Shown here: piece by piece, positions 14,552-64,000 of the stretch | Position numbering within the stretch: the stretch's first letter is position 1 | Layout of the letters: the number at the start of each line of letters is the position of its first letter | Program-made: the position numbers and the translations under genes | Notes under the pieces: model-generated | What the model was told of the DNA's origin: nothing | The model's database searches: none | What the model saw: the letters and a program-made list of their open reading frames with translations, nothing else | Assembly (NCBI GenBank): GCA_050506795.1 | Contig: JBJHCF010000004.1 | Span: 1-64,000, forward strand | DNA from: Opitutia bacterium | Lineage (GTDB): Bacteria > Verrucomicrobiota > Verrucomicrobiia > Opitutales > T3Sed10-336 | DNA: 64,000 nt | Direction of reading: 5' to 3'

Positions 14552-17500
14552 TCAGATCCGCCTGTTTTCCATGACGAGGTCCACGATTTCGTACGGTTCG
14601 AAGGCGATTTCCTGCACGGGGTCGTTGCCCTTTTGGCCGTTGGTCGGATCATAAGCATGGGCCGTCCAATCGCTGTTGAGCCGCAGTTGGGCGCTTCCGC
14701 GACGCCCCAGGGTTTCGTGGAGTCTCAGCACCCATCGACCCTGCCCCAGCGGTTCAGCCCAGCAGGGTTGGAGGGATTCTCCGCCGTGCAGGACCGGTGC
14801 CCCGCAGCTTCGTGCCGGTCCTCGGTACCGGATGAAAGGAGCGAAAAGAATTTCCGCCTGGGCCGAAGGATGGCTCTCACGTCGACCATGAGAGTCGTAA
14901 AACCCCGCCGCCAACCGTATGAGATGGCGGCCCTGGTCCGAGAATCGCTCGGCTGGGGGATTGCGCCGCAGCGAGGGGGGGATCACCCGTGCGTAGTGAC
15001 GGTCCTCGCCGGTAACGGCGGCCGCGCGCAGCAGACTGACACCAAGCGTCCCTTCCCGACAAGAGAACCCGTATTTGGCTTCGGTCGCGATCCAAAAGCC
15101 CGCGCCTTCACCTTCATCAGCGACGGCCGCCCACCGGCTGCCGGGAACCTCCCATTGGGCTTCGTCCGCGGGGGATCCCGGCAACTGGGGACGGGTGATG
15201 CTGCCGTACGGCTGTCCGTATCGAGCCAGGGGCGCGGCGTAAGAAGTCGGGAAAACCGCTTTCAGCAGCGTGCGCTCCTCATGCCAGTCGATGTCGTACT
15301 CGATGCGCAACGCCTCGCTTCCGGCTTCGAGCCGGTAACGCACGGTGACCCGGCTGGCCTTCCCGAGTGGGCCGCTCCAGGCGAGGGTTGATCGGAGGGC
15401 GTGTTGCTGAACTGGCTCGGGCTTGAGAGCACCGTTTGCGGCCTGTCCGAGGCTGAGCGTCCAGCGGTCGATGTCCCAGGCTTCGTGGCCTCGAGGATGG
15501 TCGGAGAAGAGATGCAATTCGGCGGAGGGCCGGGCGAACGCTACCTTGGCGCCCTTTACGGTCAGTCCGGTCAACCGGCCGTGGGGATCGAAATCCGCCC
15601 TTAGAATCCCGTTATCCAAAAACCTTTTTCCCGCCCGAACCGGATGGTCGAACGGAGGGGCGGCACATTCATCCAACGGCGCACCGGTCAGAGCCGGCAG
15701 AAAATAGATGGCGGGGTCCTCTTTCTGCGGGACGTTCGTGACCAGCCGCCTCGGGTACGGAAGTGGATTGAAAAGAGCCGGTTTTCCCCTCGAAGCCGAC
15801 AACTCGCGTGCCGCCTGGTCGTTGGCGTGCTCGGCCAGAGCCTCCAACTCGCGACCGGCGGCCTGGCAAACCTCGTGGATGGAACTTCCCGGCAGGCAGT
15901 CATGGAATTGGGTGAAAACCAGTCGTCTCCAAATCGATGAATCGATTTTTTGACCCGATCCCGCGCAGCGGACCGATTCCCAGGTTTGAAGTGCTTTCTC
16001 CGCACTGCGGTAGGCGGCTTTGAGACGACTGTGGGTTGTGTGGACTCCCATGTGGTACTCCAGGAAGAGCTCTCCCTGATAGCACGGAAGCGCCGAACGC
16101 TTTTCAGCCAGCCGATCGAAATAGGCCTCCGAGGTGCTCCATTCCACGGCGGGAAGAAAGCCCAGGCCGGAGACCCGACGAACCCGTTCACACATTTCCT
16201 CCGTCGGACCGCCGCCGCCGTCACCATAGCCGGTCGGCAGCAGGAACTCGTCGTGCACGTCCGATTGCCGGTAGGCGAGCTGACCTTCCTGGATTTCCTT
16301 CACCGAGGCGGCGCCGTTGTACCCGCTGGGGGTTTGCATCACATGGGCCAGGACTTCGGACCCGTCATTTCCTCTCCAGATGAAGCTGCTGTGGGGGAAT
16401 CTGCTGATTGAACTCCAGGTGAGTTTGGTGGTGAAAAAATAGTCCACTCCGGTCCGGAGCATGAGTTGCGGCAGGCAGGCGGAATAGCCGAAAACATCCG
16501 GCAGCCAGAGCAGGCGGGACGGGGTTCCCCTCAGGTCGAGGAATCCCTCCTGACCGAGGCGGAGCGACCGGTACAGTGCTTCCCCGCAAGGTAGAAGCGT
16601 GTCCGATTCCACCTCCATGGCGCCGGTGGCTTCCCATCGACCGTCGCGGATATGGCGGCGAACCTGCGCCATTAGTTGCCCGCTTCGCCGCTCCACGGCA
16701 CGGTAACTGGCCGGCTGGCTGTAACCGAATCGAAATTCCGGATACTGATCCAGCAGACGGTTGACCGTGGCGAATGTGTGAACCGCCTTGGCTGTTCCGA
16801 CCCGTTCCGGCCAAAGCCAAACAAGGTCGATGTGGGCGTGGCCGGTCATGGCGGCGCGCATGGCGGGAGCCGAGGAAAGCTCGCGGTAGATCCCTTTGAG
16901 GCGCCGGTGTAGGGCCTGGAGTCCGCCGGTGTCAAAGGCGTCGGCCGCCTGGTCCAGACTTCGAAGCAGTCGGCGCAGCAGCACGGTGGCCTCCTCGATG
17001 GGCGGTTGGTAGCCCACGCCGGACCGTTCCGGCTCCGGGATGTGGGGGTTACGTTTGCGCTCGAAGGTCAGCAGGTCCAGGAGAACCCTGAAATCGTGAT
17101 AGGTTTCCCAGGCGGTCGCATCGCGGGAAACGAGCCAGGCTCCGCCGAACTCACTGCCCCGCGGGTCCAGCCCGGTGGCGTCGGGATGCCAGATCGCGGA
17201 CTGCAGGCAGATTGCTTCGATCCAGATCTCCCGGACACCGGGCGGAAGGGGACAACGACGATGGGCCACGTCGAAACCGAACCAGGGAAGGCCATTGACG
17301 TATGCCGTGGCTTCGGCCTGATCGCGCCATTCGAGGAAGGGATAGTGTTCACTTTCGGCCGGGATCGAAACCCGAAACCAGGACTGGTCGAAGAGTTTTC
17401 CCCAGTAATGAGGATACCGGCCGATTCCGCGCATTGGACGGCTGTGGACCGCGTCAAGTGAGACGAAGTTGGGTGACGGGCGGGTCTGTTCGCACGTTAA

Positions 17501-48789: not shown

Positions 48790-48882
48790 GGAGAGATGGC
48801 TGAGTGGCCGAAAGCAGTGGTTTGCTAAACCGCCGTACCGCCAAAAGCGGTACCGAGGGTTCGAATCCCTCTCTCTCCGCCA
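48790..48882 (+). tRNA. tRNA-Ser(GCT)
   Basis: GGAGAGA acceptor stem, anticodon arm GTGGT-TTGCTAA-ACCGC, long variable arm, GGTTCGAATCC, 3' GCCA. Confidence 0.96.
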
Positions 48883-48920
48883 TTTGTGATGGGCTTTTGC
48901 CTTAGATTTGCCAAAATGGA

Positions 48921-50282
48921 ATGGCAAATCTGAGAAAAACCATGGCAAAACCTAAGTTCAAGATCACCCCGTTCACCAACCCCAGCGGCCAGCGCGTTTA
49001 CCGTCTGTCTGGCACGCTCAACGGCAAGAGGATCCGTGAGAATTATCCGACTCGCCCCGAAGCCGTTGCAAAGCGTCAGGAATATGAGGTCGAGTGGCTC
49101 AACGACCATCCCGAGGGCCGCACGATCTGGACCACCTTGACTCCTGAGGAGAATCGCGACGCGGTCACCGCAATGAATTCCCTCAAGATGAATGGCGCTC
49201 CCTACTCGCTCAGCTTCGCCGTCAGTTACTGCCTGGAGAACTACCGGCCGCCGGAACAGGAGAAATCGATCAGCGAGGCAGCGGACGAGTATGTCAAGAA
49301 GCGGGACCGCGACTGCGTTCGCGAATTCATCTCCCAGGCGCAATTTCGCTCGATCAAATCCGAGATGCTTTGGCTCAAGAGCAAGTTCGGGAGCACGCCG
49401 GTTTCGGCCATCACCGTGGAAAAATTCCGCGACTACCTCGAAACTCCGCGCAACCGGCCGCGCAGCCGTCTCGTGAAAAAGGAGGTCACCGCTCCCAAGA
49501 CCTGGAACAACCGTCGGGGCCTTCTCTCGACCTTCTGTCTGTTCTGCGTCGAGCGCGGTTACCTCGCGCAAAATACGATCGCGAAGGTTCCCCAATTCAA
49601 GATCAACGGTCGCAAGTCCATGGCGAAAACGCTAACCGTCGATCAGGTCAACGAGCTGATGGAATACCTCGAAGCCTATGACGGGTCACCTATCCGCCGC
49701 CTCAAGGAGCCCCAGCCCGCCGGCTTCCTGGTTCCCTTCTTTGCTCTCGCTCTCTTCGCCGGCATTCGTCCGGATGCGCTCTACGGCGAAATGGGTAAGC
49801 TCCAGCCGGAAGACATCGACCTGAACATGGGCGTTGTCCGGGTTCGGCCCGAAGTCTCGAAGACCAACGAAATGCGCGTGGTGGCCATTCAGCCAAATCT
49901 TCGGCTGTGGTTGGAGAAATATCCGGTGGAAAAGTTTCCGCTTCTCCCGGGAAAGAACATCGTTCGCATCCTCTCCGAGGTCCGCCAGGAACACAAGATC
50001 GGCCATGACGTTCTCCGGCACACTTACATTTCGATGCTGGTCGGCGCTTTTCGTTCGGTCGGCGACGCCGCGCTCCAAGCAGGCAATTCCGAGGCGGTGA
50101 TTCGCAAGCACTACCTCGATTTGAAGTCGGTGGAGGAGGCCGATCAGTTTTGGCAGATCATTCCTGCCGGGACTGAGCTTCCCAAGAACTTCAAGAAAAA
50201 GGACGGTCGATACGCCTTTTTCAACAAACCGGAGAAGGACTCCGAAGGCGCAGAAGAAGCTGAAGAGCTGGCGTCGGTCTAG
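48921..50282 (+). CDS. Tyrosine recombinase/integrase (alternative start 48942)
   Basis: FAGIRP (R), SKT (K), HDVLRHT (HxxR), GNS, KHY (Y). Confidence 0.92.
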   Translation: MANLRKTMAKPKFKITPFTNPSGQRVYRLSGTLNGKRIRENYPTRPEAVAKRQEYEVEWLNDHPEGRTIWTTLTPEENRDAVTAMNSLKMNGAPYSLSFAVSYCLENYRPPEQEKSISEAADEYVKKRDRDCVREFISQAQFRSIKSEMLWLKSKFGSTPVSAITVEKFRDYLETPRNRPRSRLVKKEVTAPKTWNNRRGLLSTFCLFCVERGYLAQNTIAKVPQFKINGRKSMAKTLTVDQVNELMEYLEAYDGSPIRRLKEPQPAGFLVPFFALALFAGIRPDALYGEMGKLQPEDIDLNMGVVRVRPEVSKTNEMRVVAIQPNLRLWLEKYPVEKFPLLPGKNIVRILSEVRQEHKIGHDVLRHTYISMLVGAFRSVGDAALQAGNSEAVIRKHYLDLKSVEEADQFWQIIPAGTELPKNFKKKDGRYAFFNKPEKDSEGAEEAEELASV

Positions 50283-50321: not shown

Positions 50322-50492
50322 CTACTTATCCAGCTCCTTCCTGATTCGAATGATGAGGTAAACGATCGTGGTGAGGCCTACGGCGATGCCGACGACCAGG
50401 TGAATGCGGTCGAGCATGACCGTTCCGACGGTGCCGAAGGCGCCGATCCAGACGGGGCGGTCGTGGAGGAGAAAGGCGAGTGCTTCTTTCAT
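50322..50492 (-). CDS. Small membrane protein, holin-like
   Basis: 56 aa MKEALAF...; hydrophobic helices with basic C-terminus; ATGA-coupled to the upstream gene. Confidence 0.55.
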   Translation of the reverse strand: MKEALAFLLHDRPVWIGAFGTVGTVMLDRIHLVVGIAVGLTTIVYLIIRIRKELDK

Positions 50493-50983
50493 GCGGTCGA
50501 CGTCGAGGGCGTTGGCTGAAAGAGTCCGATCCGGTAACCCCAGTAGAGGAAACCGGCTCCGGCGATGAGGATGAGGGCAACCGCCGGGAACCAGGTCTGG
50601 CCGAAGATCTGCGCGAGGATCGCCATGAGGATGCCGCCGAGGGCGAGCGTAAGGCCGGTTCGAAAGTGCCAGCCGGTGAGAAGGAGACCGCCGATCAGGG
50701 AGAGGCCGCCGAGGATTGTCCAAAGCGACAAGCCAGCAACCGAGGGAACCGCAACGGCGCGACTCTGGCCGGTGGATGTCGTGATTTCGATTTGGTCCCC
50801 TTTCCGTCGAAGCGTGACATGGGCGGGCGTCTCGGGATTGGCGGGCTGGAGCGTGGCCACGGTGGCCGCTGGAAGGCCGTTTGCATCGTGCAGAGTGACG
50901 GTGGCATGGCCTGGCGGCGTGGGCGCGGTCATGCAGCCGCTGAGGGTGGCGGCGAGGAGGAGGAAAAGGAACGCCGGTTTCAT
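50489..50983 (-). CDS. Lipoprotein with C-terminal transmembrane helices
   Basis: Lipobox LSGC, ~70-aa soluble part, then about 3 TM segments. Confidence 0.65.
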   Translation of the reverse strand: MKPAFLFLLLAATLSGCMTAPTPPGHATVTLHDANGLPAATVATLQPANPETPAHVTLRRKGDQIEITTSTGQSRAVAVPSVAGLSLWTILGGLSLIGGLLLTGWHFRTGLTLALGGILMAILAQIFGQTWFPAVALILIAGAGFLYWGYRIGLFQPTPSTSTA

Positions 50984-53844: not shown

Positions 53845-54762
53845 TCAGGTGACGCTGACCCGGCGGGCGCAAACCTTGGAGGTTACCTTGATGTCTTCGG
53901 TCCAATCCACCGCGAGGATGTCCGAGCGGTTGCTTTCGGCGCGGTAGATCCGGACGATGTCCACTCCCCCGCCGCGGGTGCGGAAGGTTTTCATGAACGA
54001 GGGATCGTAGACGCTCGGCGCTGCCTGGGCGATGAACAGGTAAAGCTCCGAGCCGATGATGTTGACGGCGTTCTTCGCCTTGCCGGGCTTTGCCGTGTCG
54101 GCGGACATGACGCCGACGCGGATGTCCAGGTTCGGGTTGAGCAGAAGGCTCGCGAACTGGGTCAGGGTGACGCCGACGCTGGCCGCTCCCGGGAAGCGTT
54201 TCACCACGGCCGGGTTGTGCCGGATGCGGCGCCACGCCGGAAGACCGATCGCCATGCGATTGGGCATCTGGCCGGTCTGGGTGGCCAGCTCTTCGATGAG
54301 TTGGTCGAGCTCGGCGACCGGGTCGTTGGTGTTGCTCGCGCCGTCCCATTGCCCCATGCCGCTGACGGCGGGAACGCTGGAAGCGGCGATCGAAAAGACC
54401 TTCGCTTCGTGGGCGACCTTGGCCCCGGAAACGAGGGTCCGGGTCTTGGCCTTTTCGAGGCCGAGCGGGTCGCCTTCTCCCGCTTGCCGGCGCTCGTGGT
54501 CGTCAATGGCGATTTCGAGCGCGTTCGGGTTGCAGTTGAAGAACGGATCCTCGGCTTCGAACTCCAGCCGGCGGGCGGGACCGCCGATGGCGCGGCGCGT
54601 ATCCGGGTTCTGGAACGCGTTTTTGTCGGAGAAGTCCTTGTATTGCCCGTTGGCGGACTGGACAACGACTTCCGGCGCGAGGAAGCTGGCGAGGGACGGC
54701 GAGCCGTCCTGCGAGAGCCCTCGGGCGTAGTTGGTGAGGGTGATGTTGAATTTAGAGGACAT
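53845..54762 (-). CDS. Major capsid protein (HK97 fold)
   Basis: 305 aa; LTNYARG..LAPEV.V, WD....DP, PNRMAIG..AW..IRHNP; position after protease and decoration genes. Confidence 0.8.
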   Translation of the reverse strand: MSSKFNITLTNYARGLSQDGSPSLASFLAPEVVVQSANGQYKDFSDKNAFQNPDTRRAIGGPARRLEFEAEDPFFNCNPNALEIAIDDHERRQAGEGDPLGLEKAKTRTLVSGAKVAHEAKVFSIAASSVPAVSGMGQWDGASNTNDPVAELDQLIEELATQTGQMPNRMAIGLPAWRRIRHNPAVVKRFPGAASVGVTLTQFASLLLNPNLDIRVGVMSADTAKPGKAKNAVNIIGSELYLFIAQAAPSVYDPSFMKTFRTRGGGVDIVRIYRAESNRSDILAVDWTEDIKVTSKVCARRVSVT

Positions 54763-54814
54763 AGCTGTGGAATTTCAGATTTGAGATCGGAGATTGGAAA
54801 CGAGTGGTTGCGGG

Positions 54815-55213
54815 TTACGGTGCGATGAGGACGGCCTCGATCTTCTCTTCGGCGACACCGCCCTCCAGCGCCATGGCAACGCGTGGCGTGGTCGGTGCGT
54901 CGCTGCTGGCGACGAAGGCAACTTCGTCGTTGTCTTCGAAAAGACCGAGAAGCGTGCCGGTCTGGGTGACCGGGCCGAAGAGCTTCACGCGGACGGTTCC
55001 GGAGAAGCCTCCCCGCGCCGGGGCGACGGTGACTTGCTCACCGGCTTTCCCGCCTTTGAGAAGGACGCCAAACGGCGTCTGCTCGGCGTTGGTCAGAAGA
55101 GTGATCTCGTTCTGACCGGTGACGATGACTGGATAGCCCTCCTTGCCGGTAAGATCGATGGCTGCCTTGAATGGCAGGATAGCGTTTTCGCGAACAATGC
55201 CTACTTGGCTCAT
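54815..55213 (-). CDS. Capsid decoration/cement protein
   Basis: 132 aa; A..DL..K.GY.V, FGVL...G.AGE.V.V, A.ALE......IEA.L. Confidence 0.7.
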   Translation of the reverse strand: MSQVGIVRENAILPFKAAIDLTGKEGYPVIVTGQNEITLLTNAEQTPFGVLLKGGKAGEQVTVAPARGGFSGTVRVKLFGPVTQTGTLLGLFEDNDEVAFVASSDAPTTPRVAMALEGGVAEEKIEAVLIAP

Positions 55214-55231
55214 AGCTGTGGATTCCTTTCT

Positions 55232-56350
55232 TTAGTTGAACAGTTCCGGGGCCTCGGCCTGGGCCTTGGCGAAGATGGTGTCGAAGGTGGCGGCCGGGTG
55301 AGCGGCGCGGAGATCGTTCAGCTTTTTGAGCTGAAGGGCCTCCTGGTTCTGGACGGGGCCGGTGCCCGCATCGCGTGCGGTGACGATGGTCGCGAAGGCG
55401 GGATTGACCGGAAGGGCCTCCAGGGCCTGCACGGCTTTCCCTTCATCGCGGATGAGAGCGTCGACCCAAAAGGTCTTGGCGTTTTCGTCCTTTGGCGCGA
55501 CGCGGCCGGCCTGAATGGCGGCATCGACGCGGGCCTCGGCTTTGGCTCGGATGGCGTTGTCACGCTCGGTTTCGAGAGCGGTCAGGCGTTCCTTCGCCGC
55601 CGCGAGATCGGCGCTGCTGGATTGCAGCGCGGTAACTTTGGCTTTCACCTGGGCGATGATGTCGGCTTCCTCCGTGGCGGAGGCCTCGACCAGCCCGAGT
55701 GTCACCAGATTCTTCAGTAGTTCTTTCATGGTTACGTGGTCTTCAGTTGCGGGTTGTGGATCTTGTCCCTTGGCGAACAAGGGCTGGATTCGTTTGAAGG
55801 CGGCGCGGTTTACAAGTCCGCCCATGTTGGTTTCGCTCCCGATGACGCGGCCTGCGGCATCGAGGAGAAAAGTCGGAGAAAAGCGCCGAAAGGCGCGGTC
55901 CTGGATGGCTTTCTTGCCGACGCCGGACCATTCGATCTTGGCGCGAACGCCGCCGGTCTTCGGGTCGTCGCCTCCCCAGAAGATTTTGACCGGCCATGCC
56001 GCGGCCTCGCGGTCGTCGTGATTGAAGTCGAAGAAGGGCTTGTCCTCGGCCCCGGCTGCGGCCAGCGCAAGCTGGCGGGTTAGCCAATCGGAGAGCGCGG
56101 TTGCCGTGGCCTGGCTGACCTCCACGTCGAGTTCGACCGGTTTGCCGGCGCGGGAGGCGCGAATGCGGTGACGGCCGGGCGGCATGTATTGGATCTCTTC
56201 GGGAAGTTGGTCCTCGGCCGGCTCTGGAAGAGCGACGGAGAATGCAGCTTTTACGGGCTCGCCCTTGGGCGGCGCGTAGGCCATGACGCCGTCGGGGCCT
56301 TCGGTCCATCCGGGATTGGAGGTTGGGGAGTTGTGATCGTGTGCGGTCAT
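55232..56350 (-). CDS. Mu gpI-like prohead protease with C-terminal scaffold
   Basis: MPPG, DFNHD...AAAW, IEWS..G...I..RAFRRFSPTF, GGLVNRAAF; helical C-terminus VDAAIQAGRVAP. Confidence 0.85.
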   Translation of the reverse strand: MTAHDHNSPTSNPGWTEGPDGVMAYAPPKGEPVKAAFSVALPEPAEDQLPEEIQYMPPGRHRIRASRAGKPVELDVEVSQATATALSDWLTRQLALAAAGAEDKPFFDFNHDDREAAAWPVKIFWGGDDPKTGGVRAKIEWSGVGKKAIQDRAFRRFSPTFLLDAAGRVIGSETNMGGLVNRAAFKRIQPLFAKGQDPQPATEDHVTMKELLKNLVTLGLVEASATEEADIIAQVKAKVTALQSSSADLAAAKERLTALETERDNAIRAKAEARVDAAIQAGRVAPKDENAKTFWVDALIRDEGKAVQALEALPVNPAFATIVTARDAGTGPVQNQEALQLKKLNDLRAAHPAATFDTIFAKAQAEAPELFN

Positions 56351-56640
56351 TTCGGTTTCCAGATCAGAGCGATAGAACAGCGGCAGTTGGGATGAACGGG
56401 GGGAAAGCGTGTCCAATCCTTGCCGTAAAGAGTGCCGTGGAGAGCGCCGCATACAGAGCAAGTGCCTTCATCGAAGTCAGTGATCCAGACGTAGGTCTGG
56501 TTTGGATCGAGCGGAGGCGGCGGCTCGCCGTCGGGATAGGTGTAGAACCATCCGTCAGGGCCTTTAACCCAACCGGGATGGCGTTCCGATTCCCGAAGCG
56601 GTTCTTCCGCGTGTAGTGCTTGTTTGGCGACGTCATTCAT
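56347..56640 (-). CDS. Miniature Mu gpF/SPP1 gp7-like head morphogenesis protein
   Basis: W...D..TCSVCGALHG..Y...FPPVHPNCRCS; only 97 aa; coupled to neighbours. Confidence 0.75.
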   Translation of the reverse strand: MNDVAKQALHAEEPLRESERHPGWVKGPDGWFYTYPDGEPPPPLDPNQTYVWITDFDEGTCSVCGALHGTLYGKDWTRFPPVHPNCRCSIALIWKPK

Positions 56641-58019
56641 TCAGTCCCGGGTCGAGGGTGAAGGGATTTTGGATTTTCGATTGCGGATTGCGGATTTGGA
56701 TTCGCGGGTGGGTTGTAGAGCACGTCCTCTTTGCCTGGAGCGGGAACCTTGTGGCGTTCGTAGAGCCACTGGCGGGAGACCGGCAGGGCCATATCGACGA
56801 AGAGTAGCTTGTCGCGCTCGACGAGCTCCTTGTCACGGGTAAGGCGCGGGATCTCGACTTCGATGTAGGGAAGCTCTTCGAGGTCGCCGTAGTTGAGCTG
56901 GATGATGGCGGGAATGAGCTGGTGATTGAGAACCTCGGCGACGTGGTTGGCGTAGCCTTCAAAGAGGTCGAGTTCGACTTCGCGGTGAACGCGGCCAAGA
57001 GCTTGCGTGCCTCCGCTTGCGGGAGTGTCGGACGTGAGAGTCTGGCCGAGGAAAAGAAGGTCGCATGCCTTGTCGGCGATGATCATCAGGCGCTCGTTCG
57101 GATCAGTGGGACCGGCTACGCCCGGAACGATGCCGTTGGACATGATGTTGATGTCGGTCCCTTTCGGGAACGCTCCCCAGGCGGATGCTCCCATCTGCTG
57201 GAGCATGTTGGCGATCAGTTGAACCTGACTGTCGGGGATGTGCTCGTCGTAGGTGGCGTAGCGGAGCGGGATCCCGAAAAGCTCCGTTTTCGAAAGCATC
57301 CACTCATAGCCAAGGAGGCGACCGAGCCAGAGCGGAGCGAGGGCGCGAAGCTGGGCGCAGGCGCCGGGGTTCGGAATGGTCGGCGGAAAGACCGAGAGAA
57401 GGAACTTGTTCGGGTAGCGGTCAAACGAGTGTGCTTCGTGGCGGTTTCGCTCCGGGTATAGCATCAGCCGGCCGGCGTGGGGATTGTGCATCGAGATGTC
57501 GAAGCCGAGGCAGGAGTAAGGAACGCGGCGCGTGCCGGTCGGGAGGATGAGTCGGTCACGAATTGCCCAATCAACCTCCAGCACGGTGACGCCCACGGCG
57601 ATGGAATCGACGAGGTTGCTGATCGTTTGGGCGAGGTTGATCTTGTTTTCGGCGAGATTCGTCGCGCCGCCGTGGAGAGCGGTTTCGATGAGGGAGGCGC
57701 GTTCGATGGCGCTGGCGGTTGGCTCCTTCCCCTTCGGACTCCATGGCTGAATGTTCCATGGGAGCTTGGTGACACTGACCTTGATCTTGTTGAGGTTCGA
57801 CCGGAGGCGCGGCCAGGTGTCGAACATGATCGAGAAAAGCTCCTGCTGACGCTCAAGGTCTCCCTGCAGTCCGGCGTCGAGCATGGCGCCCATGGTGTCG
57901 GGGTCGATGGAGCGACCCGAGAATATGTGACGGAAATCGAGGCCGGAAGGCTGGATCACCGGCTTGAGGAGCTTCCGTGGAGCGGCGTCTTTGGCTTTCG
58001 TGAGAAACGGGATTCTCAT
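56637..58019 (-). CDS. Portal protein, Mu gp29/DUF935-like
   Basis: GDL..Q.ELF, G..VLEVDW, E.FG.P.R...Y, LGQTLTS...GG.QALG.VH.EV, LN.QLI. Confidence 0.88.
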   Translation of the reverse strand: MRIPFLTKAKDAAPRKLLKPVIQPSGLDFRHIFSGRSIDPDTMGAMLDAGLQGDLERQQELFSIMFDTWPRLRSNLNKIKVSVTKLPWNIQPWSPKGKEPTASAIERASLIETALHGGATNLAENKINLAQTISNLVDSIAVGVTVLEVDWAIRDRLILPTGTRRVPYSCLGFDISMHNPHAGRLMLYPERNRHEAHSFDRYPNKFLLSVFPPTIPNPGACAQLRALAPLWLGRLLGYEWMLSKTELFGIPLRYATYDEHIPDSQVQLIANMLQQMGASAWGAFPKGTDINIMSNGIVPGVAGPTDPNERLMIIADKACDLLFLGQTLTSDTPASGGTQALGRVHREVELDLFEGYANHVAEVLNHQLIPAIIQLNYGDLEELPYIEVEIPRLTRDKELVERDKLLFVDMALPVSRQWLYERHKVPAPGKEDVLYNPPANPNPQSAIENPKSLHPRPGTE

Positions 58020-59392
58020 CAGTTACGCCCTCCAAAGGTTGCGCCCGCCGTGTAGATCGAGCGGAAGCGGGTTGGCGTCGGGACGAACCGCGAGGGATTG
58101 CCGCCGATCTGGAAGGCGTTCGGTTTTGGCGCGGATCCGGTTCCGCCGTGGCGGGCTGCGGCATGCAGGGCCAACGCGAGGGCGGTGGAGCGGTCGGCGT
58201 GGCCGTCGGCCGTTCGTGCGGCGGTGTATCGAATGTTTCCGGACGGGGAAACGATCCGTTGCAGGCTGGCCAGATCGTCGCGCAAGCGTGCGTCGAGAGG
58301 GATTTTGATCGTGCCTTCCTGGAAGTGTTTCTTGGCGCGAATGAACAGCTCGCGTTTGCTCTCCGCAGAAAAGGTAACGGGGTCGAGCTTGTAGTCGCCG
58401 AGGGTATCGGCCAGGTGCTCGGAAATCGGTCCGCCGATACCCGTCGCGTCGATGGCGGAATAGGTGGCGCGTTGCAGGCGCGGCGTGAGAGCCGCTTCCT
58501 GCTCCGGGAAAGGGACGCCGTCGAGGATTAGGATTTCGCGGGTCCAGAACGTGCCGTTGACCGCTTCGACCGTCCAGCAAACGGTGAGGTCGCGCTTGCG
58601 GCCGATGTCGACGCCGACGAAAACTGGGTTTCCGGTGAGAGCGTTCCAATCGTGGGAAGCAGCGGAATCCTCGGCAGCAGTGATGAGATCGCGGGGGAAG
58701 ACCTGGGCGCTCTCTGCCATGAACTGGCACTCGAACTCCTGCGACCATCCATCAGGATCGTTCAAGTTGGCGCGAAGCTCGTCGATGTTGACGGCGAGTC
58801 CGGCCTCTGCCGCATCGTAGATGGTGGTTTTGTGACGGGAGAAGTCGGCTCCGTTTTCCCACAGGTCGAAGTATTTGTTGTTCATCCCGGCCGGCGTGGA
58901 GATCACGCGCAGCTTGAGCCGACCGCGAAGGGGATTGGTGATGATCGGATAAACCGCCCTCCAGATGTCCTCGGGCTTTTCGTGGAAGGCGAACTCGTCC
59001 AGGACGAGATTGCCGGAGTAGCCACGGGCGGTGGAGGGATTGGCCGGGAGCGCGATTAGACGAGCACCATTGGGAAAGCGGCACTGGCTGGCTTTCGTTT
59101 CGGGGCGGTATTCCTGGCCGGTTTCGAAGGAGATCGCATCGCAGAAGACGGCGGCGGCCTGGTGGACCTTGGCCATAAATTCGAGAGCCTGCCGTTCACC
59201 GGCGGAGAGGATCACCCAGTCGCCACCCGTTTCGAGTGCATCGGCGACGACCTCGAACGCGGTCGCGAGCGATCCGCCGATTTGCCGGGATTTGAGCCAG
59301 ATCTTGAAGCGGGTCCGGTCGTTGACCCAGCTGCGCTGATACGGGAGCAGGAGGTCGAAGGGAGATACCTTCAATTTCGGACGTTTGCTCAC
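58019..59392 (-). CDS. Terminase large subunit, Mu gp28-like
   Basis: LLPYQ..W, KSRQIGGS Walker A, LVLDEFAF Walker B, ISTP.G, GVDIGR..D, DATGIG, HADR. Confidence 0.92.
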   Translation of the reverse strand: MSKRPKLKVSPFDLLLPYQRSWVNDRTRFKIWLKSRQIGGSLATAFEVVADALETGGDWVILSAGERQALEFMAKVHQAAAVFCDAISFETGQEYRPETKASQCRFPNGARLIALPANPSTARGYSGNLVLDEFAFHEKPEDIWRAVYPIITNPLRGRLKLRVISTPAGMNNKYFDLWENGADFSRHKTTIYDAAEAGLAVNIDELRANLNDPDGWSQEFECQFMAESAQVFPRDLITAAEDSAASHDWNALTGNPVFVGVDIGRKRDLTVCWTVEAVNGTFWTREILILDGVPFPEQEAALTPRLQRATYSAIDATGIGGPISEHLADTLGDYKLDPVTFSAESKRELFIRAKKHFQEGTIKIPLDARLRDDLASLQRIVSPSGNIRYTAARTADGHADRSTALALALHAAARHGGTGSAPKPNAFQIGGNPSRFVPTPTRFRSIYTAGATFGGRN

Positions 59393-59889
59393 TCCTTAGC
59401 TCCTACTGCTCCAAGTCGGTCGCGCCAGCTTTGGAGAATTTCACGCTGGTCGGCCTGGTTGATGTTAACCTCGGTCTTGACGAGGGCCGTCGGGCGGTCG
59501 GCGTAGACGTCCGGCTTGTGGCTCTTGAGGAGGAAGATCAAGCAGGCGTCGGAAAACTTGCGCTTGTATCCACAAAGGTTGCCTTTGATGTCAAAGACCG
59601 GCTCTTCCCAGCCGTCGACCGCACGGCGATGGAGCTCCTGTTCGGCGGATTCGATCCGCTGGACGTTCTTAACGCGGTCGCGTTCAAGTTGGGCGGCCTG
59701 GAGGCGCGGCGTCAGTTCGGGGCGACGGGTGAGGTTCCTGTAGAAGTTGCGCGGATTTAAGCCCTCGCGCTCAATAGCTTCGTAGGTGGGTTGGCCGTCG
59801 AGGATGTTTGCGAGGACGCGATCAAAAAGCGCTTCCGAGAATTTCGAAAGCCTGCCGGCTCGTTTTGCTACTGCCGTTTGCCTTGCCAC
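59389..59889 (-). CDS. Terminase small subunit
   Basis: N-terminal HTH, E.EL.RRAVDGWEEPVF...YKRKFSD..LIFLLK..KP..Y; overlaps terL start. Confidence 0.75.
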   Translation of the reverse strand: MARQTAVAKRAGRLSKFSEALFDRVLANILDGQPTYEAIEREGLNPRNFYRNLTRRPELTPRLQAAQLERDRVKNVQRIESAEQELHRRAVDGWEEPVFDIKGNLCGYKRKFSDACLIFLLKSHKPDVYADRPTALVKTEVNINQADQREILQSWRDRLGAVGAKE

Positions 59890-60029
59890 GAATTAATGGC
59901 ATGACATACGGGGGGCTAGGACAACTTGGGAAGTTGTGTAAAAGTTGCTGGATTTAACTGTATTTGTGCACGGTCGCGAAAACCGGAAAGTTCGTGGCCA
60001 TGTTCAGGAGAAAAGGTAGGTTGTGTGTG

Positions 60030-60506
60030 ATGTCTGAAAAATCGAGCAGGTGTTGTGATGAGGCGTCCAAAGGTCCCTTCGATGAAGTTCTGGGCTGTCC
60101 TCGTTGTGGCCGCAAGGGTCGCCCGGTCTCCGAATTGACGGTAAAGCAGCAGGTAGCACCGGAACATTTGGAGGCGGCAAGCGGCGAAGGGAATCAGTTC
60201 TGCGGGACTCCGGATTGCGCGGTGGTGTATTTTGTCGCTGGGGGGCAGGTCTTCGAGCAGAAGGATCTACGGCAGAAAGTTGGGTTGAAGGACCGTTCAG
60301 ATCCGTCCCCGGTTTGCTACTGCTTTGGGTTTACAAGGAGGATGGTGGAAGATGAGGTTCGGTCGACTGGCAGGAGCACGATTCCGGACCGCATTGCCCG
60401 CGAAGTGAAGGCAGGAAACTGTGCGTGTGAGGCGCGGAATCCACAGGGGAGTTGTTGCCTTGGGAATGTGACGGCGGCGGTGAAAGAGGCGGAACGTGGG
60501 GGTTGA
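60030..60506 (+). CDS. CopZ-N-like Zn-binding/BFD-like [2Fe-2S] metallochaperone
   Basis: CPRCG, FCGTPDC.VVYF, PVCYCFG, CACEARNPQGSCCLGNV. Confidence 0.85.
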   Translation: MSEKSSRCCDEASKGPFDEVLGCPRCGRKGRPVSELTVKQQVAPEHLEAASGEGNQFCGTPDCAVVYFVAGGQVFEQKDLRQKVGLKDRSDPSPVCYCFGFTRRMVEDEVRSTGRSTIPDRIAREVKAGNCACEARNPQGSCCLGNVTAAVKEAERGG

Positions 60507-60509
60507 TCG

Positions 60510-62490
60510 TTGTTGGACCCTCGCGGGGCCATAAACGCCGCGACGTAAAAACGCGTGTAGAGGCGCGGAGCGCCGCTGGCAACGACGAGCGGGCGTTAGC
60601 CCGCGAGGAGGCGCAGCGAGGCCGTTGTCGGCCGAGCGGAGGCCGCGGGGCGAGGCCGCGGAACTGGGGGCGCGGAGCGCCTAGGCGTTCTATTGGCGCG
60701 GCGAAGCCGCTGGTGATTGCAGGCGCGATAGCGCCGTGCGAAGCTGCGAAGCAGCGTAGCGAAGGGCGCTGCCAGGGGCCGCCCCAGGCGCTGGCTGAGC
60801 CAGCGCGTCAGCGCGAGGCGAAACAGCGCGGGGCCACCGCGCCGGGAGGCGGGGGGAAGGCGCCCCTTCCATTCACATTAAGGGGCGCCGCCTGGCGTCG
60901 AGGAGATCAACGGTAGCGATAGCGAGTGAAACGGGGGAGGTTCGCGACGGCGAGGGTCGTGTGGCCGTTCCGCCGACCAGGGCGGGGGCTGGGGGATATA
61001 CTGATTTCAGGCCCCGAGCGAAGCGAGAGCGAATGCGTGGGCCGTGCAACGACGAGTCTTCGAGGAGGCGCAGGGAGCCTTAGCGACCGAAGTTCGCCCG
61101 GGTTAGGCGGGCGAAACTGGGGGCCGGTCCGGATAGCGGCTGGTGAGGGCTCTGCCACAGACGGGTCCCGGGTGGATGGGGTGAGCCCTCGCTGCCTGCG
61201 CCGGGGCGGCCTAGGCCCTACTCTACTGGAGCGAAGCGACAACTGACTCGAGCCCCCGGAGCGGAGCCGGAGCAGACGCCCAGTCCCGCAAGCGCACATG
61301 ATCATCATATGTCAAAAATCCGCCGGAAGAAGGAATACCTGGACTGATGGAGGAAAAGTGAACACGTCAGGATCTTCGGCATATGATCCTCATGTGCGGT
61401 CCCGCTTTTTGGGACGAACTGGAGGGAAGCAGGAAGCATGACACCGGCTTGCCGGTGGCGCGATGCCTGCGAGGGCGTCTGTTCCGGCGGAGCGGAGGGG
61501 GCTTTCCGGGGTTGGGTGTGAGTGAGCTTGCGAACGAACTGGTAGAAGTTTCGAGCGGGAGCGAGCGTCAGCCTTCCCGGCGATTGAGGGTCCAAAGCGG
61601 TCGGCAGCGCGTCGCCGGGGCGAGGCGGATGGGTTGGCGGAGGGCGTTTCCCGGCGTGGCGCTGCTGGTGACTTTCAGCGCCGGAAGGAGCGGTCTGAGG
61701 CGGAGTCTTCGGAGCCTCTGTCCGCGACTCGGCGCCAGAGGGGCGTTCGATTGCAACCGGGGCGAGCAGTCGCTGGCGGATGGTGACCAGAGCGTAACGG
61801 AGCGTCCGGCGTAGCGCAGGGTGGAGCGTAGGGGTGCAGTAGTCCGGTTGCCCGAAGGGTCGCGTAACACGAGGGGACGCGGTGAGCGAAGCCTGTCGCC
61901 GTTAGGCGTCTGGCGAAGCAGCGGCCAATCGTGTTACGCGCCGGACTTCTGCATCCCGAAGCGGAACCCGGAGCGGAGTCGGAAAGCGGCGTGGAGCGAC
62001 GGGAGCGATCGGCCAGCGTCTGCGGTTGGATTGTCCCGAACCGAGCGACCGGAACAGTCGCTCCGGATGCGAGGTATCGAGCAGAAGGAGTGTCTGTGGA
62101 GGGAGCGGCCGGATTACCCGTCAGGGTTGGCGAGGGCGTTCGATTGGAACGGGATCGAGCAGTCTCGGGCCCGCTGCGAGGGAGACCGGGCGAGCGATTA
62201 GCCGCCCAGGTTCGACTAAGCGAAGGGGCCGAGTCTGCGGTTGGATTGTCCGAGGACGAGCGACCGGAACAGTCGCTCTGGAGTGAGGAACGAATGGAGG
62301 AGCGTCTGTGGAGGGAGCGGGATTGCGCCCGTCAGGGGTGGGACGTTGACTTGCAACCGAATCGAGTGGTCGCTGAAGGAAGGGGCGGCGGCGCTAAGGG
62401 CCGTTGCTGCCTTTGGCAGCTGATGGCCCGTGCGGCGACGAACCGACCGGAAGCGTCCACGGTTGGATTACCCGGGGCCGTTCGCTCCGT
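60510..62490 (+). other. ~2 kb non-coding, highly structured region (ssDNA element or large ncRNA)
   Basis: No credible ORF; nested long-range inverted repeats, GNA-loop hairpins and a ~215-bp internal duplication. Confidence 0.7.
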
Positions 62491-62955
62491 TTATTGCACG
62501 CCGTGGCGGTTAGCCGCTTGCTCCTCGCGGGCATGTTCCGCGAAGCTATCGGCCAAAGCCAAGACCTCTTCCGGGGTTGGGCTTCTATCGGTTTCAGAGA
62601 AGGCCACCGGACATACCAGCCAGTGAACCGCACGCAAAAGATGGTCGGAGATGAGGGAGGCTGAGCGGCCACGAACCGCAAATTCCCCAGTGTTGAAAAG
62701 CTCCATGTGACGAGACAAATACGTGCAGACCGTGGCAATTGCCGAACCCCGCTCCAATCTGTCGATGTCGTTCGAGTAGGTCTCGTGCATGTAATCTCTG
62801 ATCTCGAGGACATCCGTTACATAATCACGCTTTGTTCCTTCCGGACAAGGACGCCTGACCGCTTCAAGATCTCTCACAAATTCGGAGAACGGATACTGGT
62901 AGCGCGAATTGGCCACTGCGGAGCTCTTCTGACTGTCGCTTTCTGCTCGATTCAT
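62491..62955 (-). CDS. Hypothetical protein
   Basis: 154 aa from MNRAESDS; protein-like composition; same strand as neighbours. Confidence 0.55.
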   Translation of the reverse strand: MNRAESDSQKSSAVANSRYQYPFSEFVRDLEAVRRPCPEGTKRDYVTDVLEIRDYMHETYSNDIDRLERGSAIATVCTYLSRHMELFNTGEFAVRGRSASLISDHLLRAVHWLVCPVAFSETDRSPTPEEVLALADSFAEHAREEQAANRHGVQ

Positions 62956-63016: not shown

Positions 63017-63289
63017 CTACAGGCGCTTGCGCCAATCGGGATTCCTGGCAATCCAGTCGAGGGCGGCGGCGAGCGTTGTGCGGTTGGCGGGCATTGGGAA
63101 GCCGGCTCTGCGCATTCGATAAACGTAGGTGGGATGATGTTTCAATTGCCAGGCCAGTTCCTTGGCAGTGAGCAAGGGTCCGGTCGTGAGGAGATCGACG
63201 GAATTGAGATTCTCCGCGTCCCGCTTCGTCGATGCGTGGCGTCGCTCGATAGAATTCTGGGCTTCGGATTTGAGATTGGAAGTGGTCAT
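63017..63289 (-). CDS. Small HTH DNA-binding protein (AlpA/excisionase-like)
   Basis: LLTAKELAWQLKHHPTYVYRMRRAGFPMP...ALDWI. Confidence 0.7.
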   Translation of the reverse strand: MTTSNLKSEAQNSIERRHASTKRDAENLNSVDLLTTGPLLTAKELAWQLKHHPTYVYRMRRAGFPMPANRTTLAAALDWIARNPDWRKRL

Positions 63290-63501: not shown

Positions 63502-63999
63502 TTATGCGACGATTTCTTCGCCTTTTTTGGTGAGTTTGTAGCCGTCTTTGCCGGTTCGAAAATAGCCCTCTGTCTTTCCTTTGAGCAAAACGCGCTGCAG
63601 GGAGCGCTTTGAACCGGCGTCGGGACCGCCGAGAGCATCATGGATTTCGCCTATTTTTTTTGCTCCCTCGTGGATCGCGCCCGCGACTTCCGCGAGGCTA
63701 AAGTTGGCGTTTGATCGCTTGCCTTCGACGTCGTCTTTCCATGCCTGGAGGTCGAATGTCGGGTCGATGCCGTAGAGCATCGTCTCTTCGGAGAGCTTCA
63801 AACCGACGGGATCGAAAGGCTTCGCGTCGTTCGATTTTCCGCAGGAAACAACGATGCGGCTCGGGTCGTCCGGATCGGCGGGGGCGATGTTGATCTGCGA
63901 GCGGCAACCCGAATAAAGCGCCTTCGAGCCGAGACCGAAGTTGGATTTATCCCACCCCACCGCCTGGGCGATGTTCTGCCGGCCGGTGCGCCCGTGATG
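63502..63999 (-). CDS. C-terminus of AAA/RepA-type (SF4-like) helicase or primase-helicase, truncated by window end
   Basis: Frame open to the edge: HHGRTG...GLGSKALYSGCRSQINI...CGKSN, followed by a winged-helix-like C-terminus. Confidence 0.7.
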   Translation of the reverse strand, partial: HHGRTGRQNIAQAVGWDKSNFGLGSKALYSGCRSQINIAPADPDDPSRIVVSCGKSNDAKPFDPVGLKLSEETMLYGIDPTFDLQAWKDDVEGKRSNANFSLAEVAGAIHEGAKKIGEIHDALGGPDAGSKRSLQRVLLKGKTEGYFRTGKDGYKLTKKGEEIVA

Positions 64000-64000
64000 A

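Follow-up and report, generated by a model that had tools for sequence, protein, structure and literature searches.

Guanine zippers are known from the (GGA)2 motif of human satellite III, where GNA triplets oppose GNA triplets with 2-bp spacers, sheared G·A pairs surround two stacked bases, and the purine strand folds alone, as described in PMC11014236. The GCGNAGC and GCGNNAGC DNA mini-hairpins, which have weaker RNA counterparts and bind SSB poorly according to PMC13037366, occur at the G4 origin, RSF1010 ssiA and the N4 promoter, where GNA- or GNNA-capped hairpins of single-stranded DNA (ssDNA) serve priming or transcription. Repeated folded domains on the template strand beside genes have been described for Frpo promoters and CUP repeats (PMC9849209), and the natural single-stranded overhangs of Streptomyces telomeres carry many hairpins with GNA loops and sheared G·A pairs (PMC5449611). 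CTXphi attP(+) contains a pair of dif-like sites in inverted orientation, 90 nt apart; their centres are unequal or mismatched, and the two combine into a single site by pairing (PMC4246890). The cf-PICI satellites encode an integrase, primase/helicase, and their own capsid, portal and terminase, and have no tail genes (PMC10085698). Each ingredient of the locus presented here has such a precedent. What is new is a structured, putatively single-stranded DNA signal region with zipper arrays, a real feature whose function is putative.

The window analyzed is the whole 64,000-nucleotide stretch, positions 1-64000 of contig C4 in a 4.94 Mb genome. A 32 kb element, delimited by an attL/attR repeat pair, is integrated there in a tRNA-Ser gene, with the following layout.

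48857..48884, plus strand: attL, the tRNA-Ser 3' end; 28-bp repeat with its second copy (attR) at contig position 80885
48921..50282, plus strand: tyrosine integrase (weak PF00589 match; phrog_1, E 8e-24)
53845..58019, minus strand: head genes (major capsid, Mu-like protease, Mu F-like, Mu-like portal)
58019..59889, minus strand: terminase large and small subunits (PF03237, PF17289, phrog_4044)
59964..60506, plus strand: CopZ-like cargo gene between terS and the structured region (PF18423)
60510..62500, plus strand: G-rich strand of the structured non-coding region; the head and replication genes run antisense to it
63017..63180, minus strand: conserved small ORF closing the structured region (tblastn in relatives)
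63502..64000, minus strand: AAA_25 helicase (AAA_25, E 5e-19)

Past the window end, the element encodes AEP-fold primase, PolA, RusA-like and exonuclease genes together with metal-efflux cargo. Sequence searches of the primase against the PDB gave no match, and its structural model (pLDDT 92.6) has a clear AEP fold, best matched by the S-2L PrimPol (E 7e-4) and then weakly by the RepB' of RSF1010-type systems (E 0.04, prob 0.91). The small ORF at 63017..63180 has no Pfam or PHROG match and appears HTH-like. The CopZ-like gene is absent from a close relative, in which the joint corresponds to 59976-60518 (run X2). As in the cf-PICI satellites, no tail genes were recognized between capsid and integrase, either in the element or in two complete relatives; the capsid-integrase gap is just 2.4 kb in one complete relative, and another has unrelated cargo genes within about 1 kb after the capsid gene. 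Named relatives belong to the Opitutales and Puniceicoccaceae. A Mu-like head, PolA and Opitutales hosts set the element apart from cf-PICI, and the head-tail adaptor, connector and HNH features of those satellites found no family match among the ORFs scanned, which included part of the small ORFs. A lipoprotein-like small ORF (50489-50983, minus strand, without a family match; also L143:8811-9329) occupies the place downstream of the capsid gene at which tail genes would be expected. In one relative (L147:4281-12742), a DUF4007 / PAPS-reductase / ATPase cluster, possibly a defence system, directly follows the capsid gene.

The structured region occupies a gene-free gap of ∼2 kb that separates terS from the replication genes. 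It has a G skew of 0.22 and internal repeats, and contains the features listed below.

60546..60559, plus strand: module A, a conserved A-run and CGCG motif near the terS start
60611..60644, plus strand: hairpin with tandem GA/GA and GCA/GGA, read from the sequence; weak outer helix
60826..60895, plus strand: module B, the most conserved block, with three to four small hairpins (pattern search)
61250..61281, plus strand: stem 1, 5' arm, with zipper triplets GGA 61258 and GGA 61263
61288..61290, plus strand: GCA zipper half opposite GGA 61421-61423
61289..61317, plus strand: module E site 1, dif-like, with XerC-side arm, 7-nt centre and XerD-side arm
61374..61402, minus strand: module E site 2, inverted and dif-like, pairing with site 1 in the fold
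61473..61504, plus strand: stem 1, 3' arm, with zipper triplets GGA 61489 and GGA 61494
61766..62024, plus strand: rod 2, with five GNA/GNA zippers and two tandem GA/GA
62045..62107, plus strand: short hairpin with two zippers and tandem GA pairs (zipper scan)
62260..62320, plus strand: repeat of the 62045..62107 hairpin (zipper scan, repeat search)

The rod 2 zippers pair 61794 with 61993, 61811 with 61975, 61816 with 61970, 61823 with 61963 and 61828 with 61958. Both arms of stem 1 contain GC-GGA-GC, which makes mini-hairpins an alternative to the stem. A domain recurs three times within positions 61740-62500; in each copy, a TTG(C/G)AAC motif on the 5' side and a motif of the GCGTCTGCGG type on the 3' side close a rod, and similar domain repeats are found in relatives.

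The initial annotation had pointed to recurrent symmetric GNA-GC-GNA internal loops within long stems. Its loop coordinates all agree with the sequence, and the structures are larger than first noted, with further zippers at 61794/61993 (GTA/GGA), 61288/61421 (GCA/GGA) and in the hairpins at 62045-62107 and 62260-62320. The three pairings that it named are present in both the MFE and centroid structures under standard DNA folding with no zipper bonus. The window MFE holds 10 GNA/GNA loops, to which a separate scan added the two short zipper hairpins. At the 60620-60633 hairpin, the related motif is as described, but the outer helix is weak, consisting of one C-G pair followed by a mismatch. 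DNA folding z-scores are -6.6 for 61251-61503 and -5.5 for 61766-62024, and the opposite strand does worse in both cases (-4.4 and -2.5). Such pairings are rare in the genome. When at least 4 flanking pairs are required on either side, GNAGCGNA opposite GNAGCGNA is found 4 times on the two strands of the 4.94 Mb genome, and 3 of these cases lie in the structured region; allowing any 2-bp spacer yields 9 genome-wide cases with the same 3 in the region. Ungapped rods with at least 2 zippers and a score of at least 48 number 6 in the genome, 4 of which, including the three best, lie in the structured region.

To place these loops in a family context, 24 of 25 regions were folded (L097 was left out). 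GNA/GNA accounts for 83 of the 177 3x3 loops in their MFE structures, as compared to 4/76 in shuffles (one dinucleotide shuffle per region), 0/50 on the reverse strand and 5/86 in 42 random GC-rich host windows, and the reversed motif ANG/ANG occurs twice in the same loop count; the relatives are often close kin, and kinship inflates this and all other zipper, cap and conservation counts given here. An equal frequency in shuffled or ordinary GC-rich DNA, which would have spoken against the initial annotation, is thus not observed. At least one zipper is present in 22/24 regions, with five regions having one and two having zero in the MFE; zipper arrays are not universal in the family. The middle bases of the 83 loops are GG in 37, CG in 15, GT in 12, AT in 8, AG in 8, TT in 2 and CT in 1, making GGA/GGA the commonest type (37/83). 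A Y-GNA-R context, in which N may be any of the four bases, is evident from a pyrimidine 5' of the first triplet in 72/83 loops and a purine 3' in 78/83. In a 12-sequence clade alignment, G is invariant (144/144 cells), A is retained in 137 cells and N differs from the majority base in 21, bearing out the view that G and A are fixed and N varies. The loops accordingly consist of GNA opposite GNA between Watson-Crick pairs with G and A fixed, as in the DNA G-zipper (GNA)2 motif.

RNAalifold places six GNA/GNA loops in a row on the 12-member alignment, with two-sided change in 13/79 pairs. A homologous rod 2 with 3-7 zippers can be drawn in 14/25 regions, a descriptive result since the drawing rewards zippers, and in the same zipper-rewarding drawing the spacer helices differ on both sides between clades (gc/gc, gt/ac, at/at, gcc/ggc). 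Across regions, the zipper count ranges from 0 to 10 and spacers from 2 to about 9 bp. Contigs about 95% alike differ inside a zipper just once among the rod 2 changes listed, at an N (61971); two others among those listed are A>G changes that give G·T pairs and two create new pairs, with the X2 contig being replaced over the rod 2 5' arm, so that its other 3'-arm changes cannot be paired. Unlike satellite III, the element's zippers accept any base at N, have varied, co-varying spacers, and sit in a branched, non-tandem structure of a bacterial mobile genome.

Whether such a structure is DNA or RNA is difficult to tell in genome scans (PMC5737381). Hairpin caps, counted without an energy model in 25 regions and 60 shuffles, are of DNA type, those of stable DNA mini-hairpins: cGNAg caps number 55 vs 8.1 in shuffles (max 15), cGNYAg 23 vs 2.5 (max 7), gCTTGc 5 vs 0.2 and cTTCGg 0 vs 0.2, and GNRA without C-G closure is depleted (1 vs 5.3). 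The cGNRAg cap, which would suit RNA as well, is enriched too (16 vs 5.9, max 15). The pattern is unchanged in a 15-region spread. The same caps, mostly on one strand, occur in the leading-region repeats of ColIb-P9 and R46, which served as a positive control and in which zippers are single at most. Multi-zipper rods scoring 40 were found in none of pUB110, R46, ColE1, F 40-70 kb and ColIb-P9 1-50 kb, so that the element differs from Frpo and CUP repeats in its zipper arrays. One TGGAG/CGGAA zipper is present in each of three F/ColIb-P9 leading-region repeats; such zipper-bearing plasmid repeats lie upstream of an antirestriction gene in L153 and upstream of both ardA and an antirestriction gene in L154. 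Contigs from three RNA-labelled runs (X2, X6, X7; X2 being one 18 kb contig) span head genes and non-coding region alike; contigs from such runs cannot show expression and are neutral on RNA. Taken with the enrichment, strand bias, Y-GNA-R context and the dif-like hairpin considered below, the DNA-type caps back the proposal of a repeated, predicted sheared-G·A module folding in ssDNA.

Two inverted sites inside stem 1, here called module E, have arms like a host dif-like site that is single-copy in 10/12 family genomes and 5/5 other genomes tested. On contig C39 this host site sits where KOPS-like motifs and GC skew flip, and it can be read as dif. Among 28 distinct site pairs, the left and right arm variants agree (AA/AA 18, TA/TA 9, AT/AT 1; T/T 24, A/A 4), and the two sites have their first two central bases in common in 20/28 pairs, as compared to a permutation mean of 4.1 (max 11), a contrast inflated by kinship. 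This co-variation backs intra-strand pairing of the two sites. The centres of a pair are 6/7, 7/6, 7/5, 7/7 or 8/5 nt long, and the sites are 33-81 nt apart in the family, as compared to 90 in CTXphi, whose attP(+) has the same inverted, unequal arrangement. The element differs from CTXphi in that it is integrated in a tRNA gene by an integrase of its own, with module E intact inside, and encodes a terminase and portal rather than a filamentous virion. Unlike CTXphi attP, the module E central bases do not match host dif, with 13 different central starts in the 28 pairs, and the elements sit in tRNA genes with host dif intact elsewhere. Because the centres match each other and not host dif, a second copy of the element is the likely Xer partner, which is a guess. 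XerC/XerD at the dif-like hairpin appear to be the clearest protein target in the region, one that was overlooked by the initial annotation. In capsid-less elements with the same module, both arms of one site are nearly identical to those of dif, and recombinases encoded by these elements could act in place of host XerC/XerD. When reciprocal junctions were sought at module E site 1, just two chance matches emerged. In one locus (L162; G209:C81, about 15574-15690), element DNA ends in the site 1 centre with site 2 intact, as a crossover scar would look, a single case whose reciprocal end was not found. A second module E hairpin (L149; G000:C29:65552-65680) is intergenic in the host, with no element genes seen nearby.

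The family was surveyed in IMG/VR, where TerL identified 28 loci and TerS a further 13 matches, partly on the same contigs. Where upstream DNA is present, relatives mostly have a G-rich non-coding region antisense to terS; one locus (L038) has no structured region despite a 96% identical TerS, and another (L040) is degenerate. The module B pattern matched 25 IMG/VR viral contigs, all of the element's family, 47 metagenome stretches, at least 4 of them chance coding matches, and 6/401 genomes of the order, its own included. No BLAST-level copy of the region exists in 11 other family genomes or elsewhere in its own. In a second clade, the replication module is swapped (AAA_24, SF2 helicase and a 668-aa AAA_25 protein) and the structured region is retained, such that rods persist where the replication module is replaced. 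The position beside terS is constant in both clades. Capsid-less elements that share modules B and E, with CHC2 primase, XerD-like integrases and Rhs-like genes, nearly lack rods, with 0-2 single zippers in 4 regions. Several of them (G148, with 8 module B copies, G209, L135-L141, L075, L077 and L098) have a CHC2/Toprim primase and Xre regulator, with short tandem duplications at the ends and sometimes a duplicated module E. Three relatives of the element (L042, L043, L044) retain modules B and E and have tandem repeats of ∼30-70 nt in place of rods. Two narrower zipper patterns in IMG/VR (30 and 5 matches) yielded no second family among six matches examined, all of which were coding chance matches or simple GGA-pentamer repeats. 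Unrelated viral contigs contain an intergenic pure (GGAGC)n run (L203:1501-1563) and a long intergenic GGA-pentamer array (L207), and these could in principle form G-zippers like those of human satellite III.

On balance, the GNA/GNA loops are conserved modules specific to one strand, and the ∼2 kb region to which they belong probably folds as ssDNA, with zippers holding the stems, a judgement that takes strand displacement, plus-strand folding, the Xer site and priming hairpins together as one reading. Each loop is predicted, by analogy, to contain a pair of stacked bases enclosed by two sheared G·A pairs, and such zippers would hold long stems on one strand without a perfect palindrome in the duplex. 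The families of the replication genes suggest that after excision the AAA_25 helicase, AEP primase and PolA copy the element by strand displacement; the helicase and primase are, we assume, like the RSF1010 strand-displacement set (RepA family). The displaced plus strand would then fold, keep hairpins open to priming, and build a XerC/XerD site that is mismatched in the duplex and compatible with a second element copy, with a role such as releasing or joining unit copies. Since their number and spacing vary, the zippers probably serve to staple the structure together and not as a sequence code read by a single protein, and the comparison among regions argues against a fixed sequence site. The initial annotation had suggested a primase, terminase or RNA polymerase as the binding partner; a shape-reading protein is possible, and the distribution would then point to the capsid/terminase module or a host factor and not to the primase. 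Elements packaged by a terminase can normally do without a long ssDNA stage, and because this element encodes a dsDNA packaging motor, such a stage is unexpected. A region of about 2 kb with zipper arrays also differs from ssiA, a 40-nt signal (PMC13037366).

A still better fold of rod 2 is obtained with RNA parameters (z -8.5), which speaks against an ssDNA reading, and the plus strand could instead encode a large ncRNA like MISL, GOLLD or ROOL, its loops being RNA purine-rich 3x3 loops. RNA loops with consecutive sheared GA pairs exist. The genes flanking the region point the other way, as they do for MISL, a Verrucomicrobia RNA motif, and the region may have been described earlier as a predicted RNA, MISL or similar. 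A weak sigma70-like match at 61359-61387 (plus strand), which module E site 2 overlaps, and a terminator-like sequence at 62473 would frame about 1.1 kb, but shuffled sequences give similar numbers of promoter and terminator matches (1 vs 0.5; 1 vs 1.8). The -10-like hexamer found in the module E 3' arm in 11/25 regions overlaps the XerD-side arm, and paired dif-like arms make sense for a DNA recombinase only. Enriched triloop and GNYA caps, the absence of cTTCGg, and the lack of a match in the window or 12 related loci to Rfam, of which MISL is a member, further make such an ncRNA unlikely. That the loops arose as a by-product of GGA-rich, repeat-derived, GC-rich DNA without selection would fit the internal repeats, the G skew and the predominance of GGA/GGA, but dinucleotide shuffles and G-rich host windows are largely without loops (4/76, 5/86), G is invariant as N changes in the 12-sequence alignment, and spacers change on both sides between clades, by which this explanation is largely refuted and very improbable.

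Two other explanations accept a folded DNA strand and place it elsewhere in the life cycle. In one, DNA from tail-less particles enters the cytoplasm single-stranded, and the region is a leading-region-like promoter or priming site, with Xer joining two folded E copies that lie in the terminal redundancy and so circularizing the DNA. The failure to find tail genes, the self-compatibility of module E and the single zippers in F and ColIb-P9 leading-region repeats agree with this, as does the folded strand being the template of terS-terL and lying 3' of them, the geometry described for Frpo (PMC9849209). Canonical -35/-10 boxes like those of Frpo do not appear to be conserved (on the folded strand, a search for Frpo-type boxes gave a good -10-like hexamer with a poor -35 in 11/25 regions and a score of at least 9/12 in 3/25) and conjugation genes were not recognized, and capsid-less elements carry modules B and E as well; we regard single-stranded entry as quite unlikely. 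In the other, the region is a packaging start or genome end, at which a resected 3' overhang folds as in Streptomyces telomeres (PMC5449611) and the terminase reads the rods. The constant position beside terS and the tracking of zipper arrays with the capsid module, not the replication module, are expected of such a site, and telomere overhangs resemble the region in being natural ssDNA with GNA-capped hairpins, a state that we infer for the element. Streptomyces telomeres rely on a terminal-protein system at a fixed end, but no terminal protein gene was recognized here and contig ends in 64 loci (after 5 metagenome module B matches had been dropped) scatter over the region with no single terminus. 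Modules B and E in terminase-less elements would also be left unexplained, making a packaging or end function improbable.

Literature searches, which covered few subscription journals, found no paper on the zipper motif in phages, prophages or satellites, and none that describes a terminase-encoding element with a folded Xer site. G-zippers have so far come from oligonucleotide structures and human satellite DNA, and here a mobile element of bacteria has them in conserved arrays that appear to be under selection, where natural variants show which zipper positions matter and make a biological role testable. Y-GNA-R pairs together with cGNAg/cGNYAg caps provide a usable rule for separating structured ssDNA from RNA. 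If true, a folded Xer site in an element with a terminase would extend ssDNA recombination beyond filamentous phages and integrons. More tentatively, and doubtful as it stands, the element may represent a terminase-packaged, tail-less family with an obligatory ssDNA stage, in which a protein of the host or the element reads the zipper rods by shape and a fold-activated XerC/XerD site circularizes or resolves its own genome. Were this the case, the region, whose module E also occurs in an unrelated primase/XerD/Rhs element family, would represent an ornate ssDNA found in nature and would be to DNA what the large ornate ncRNAs are to RNA.
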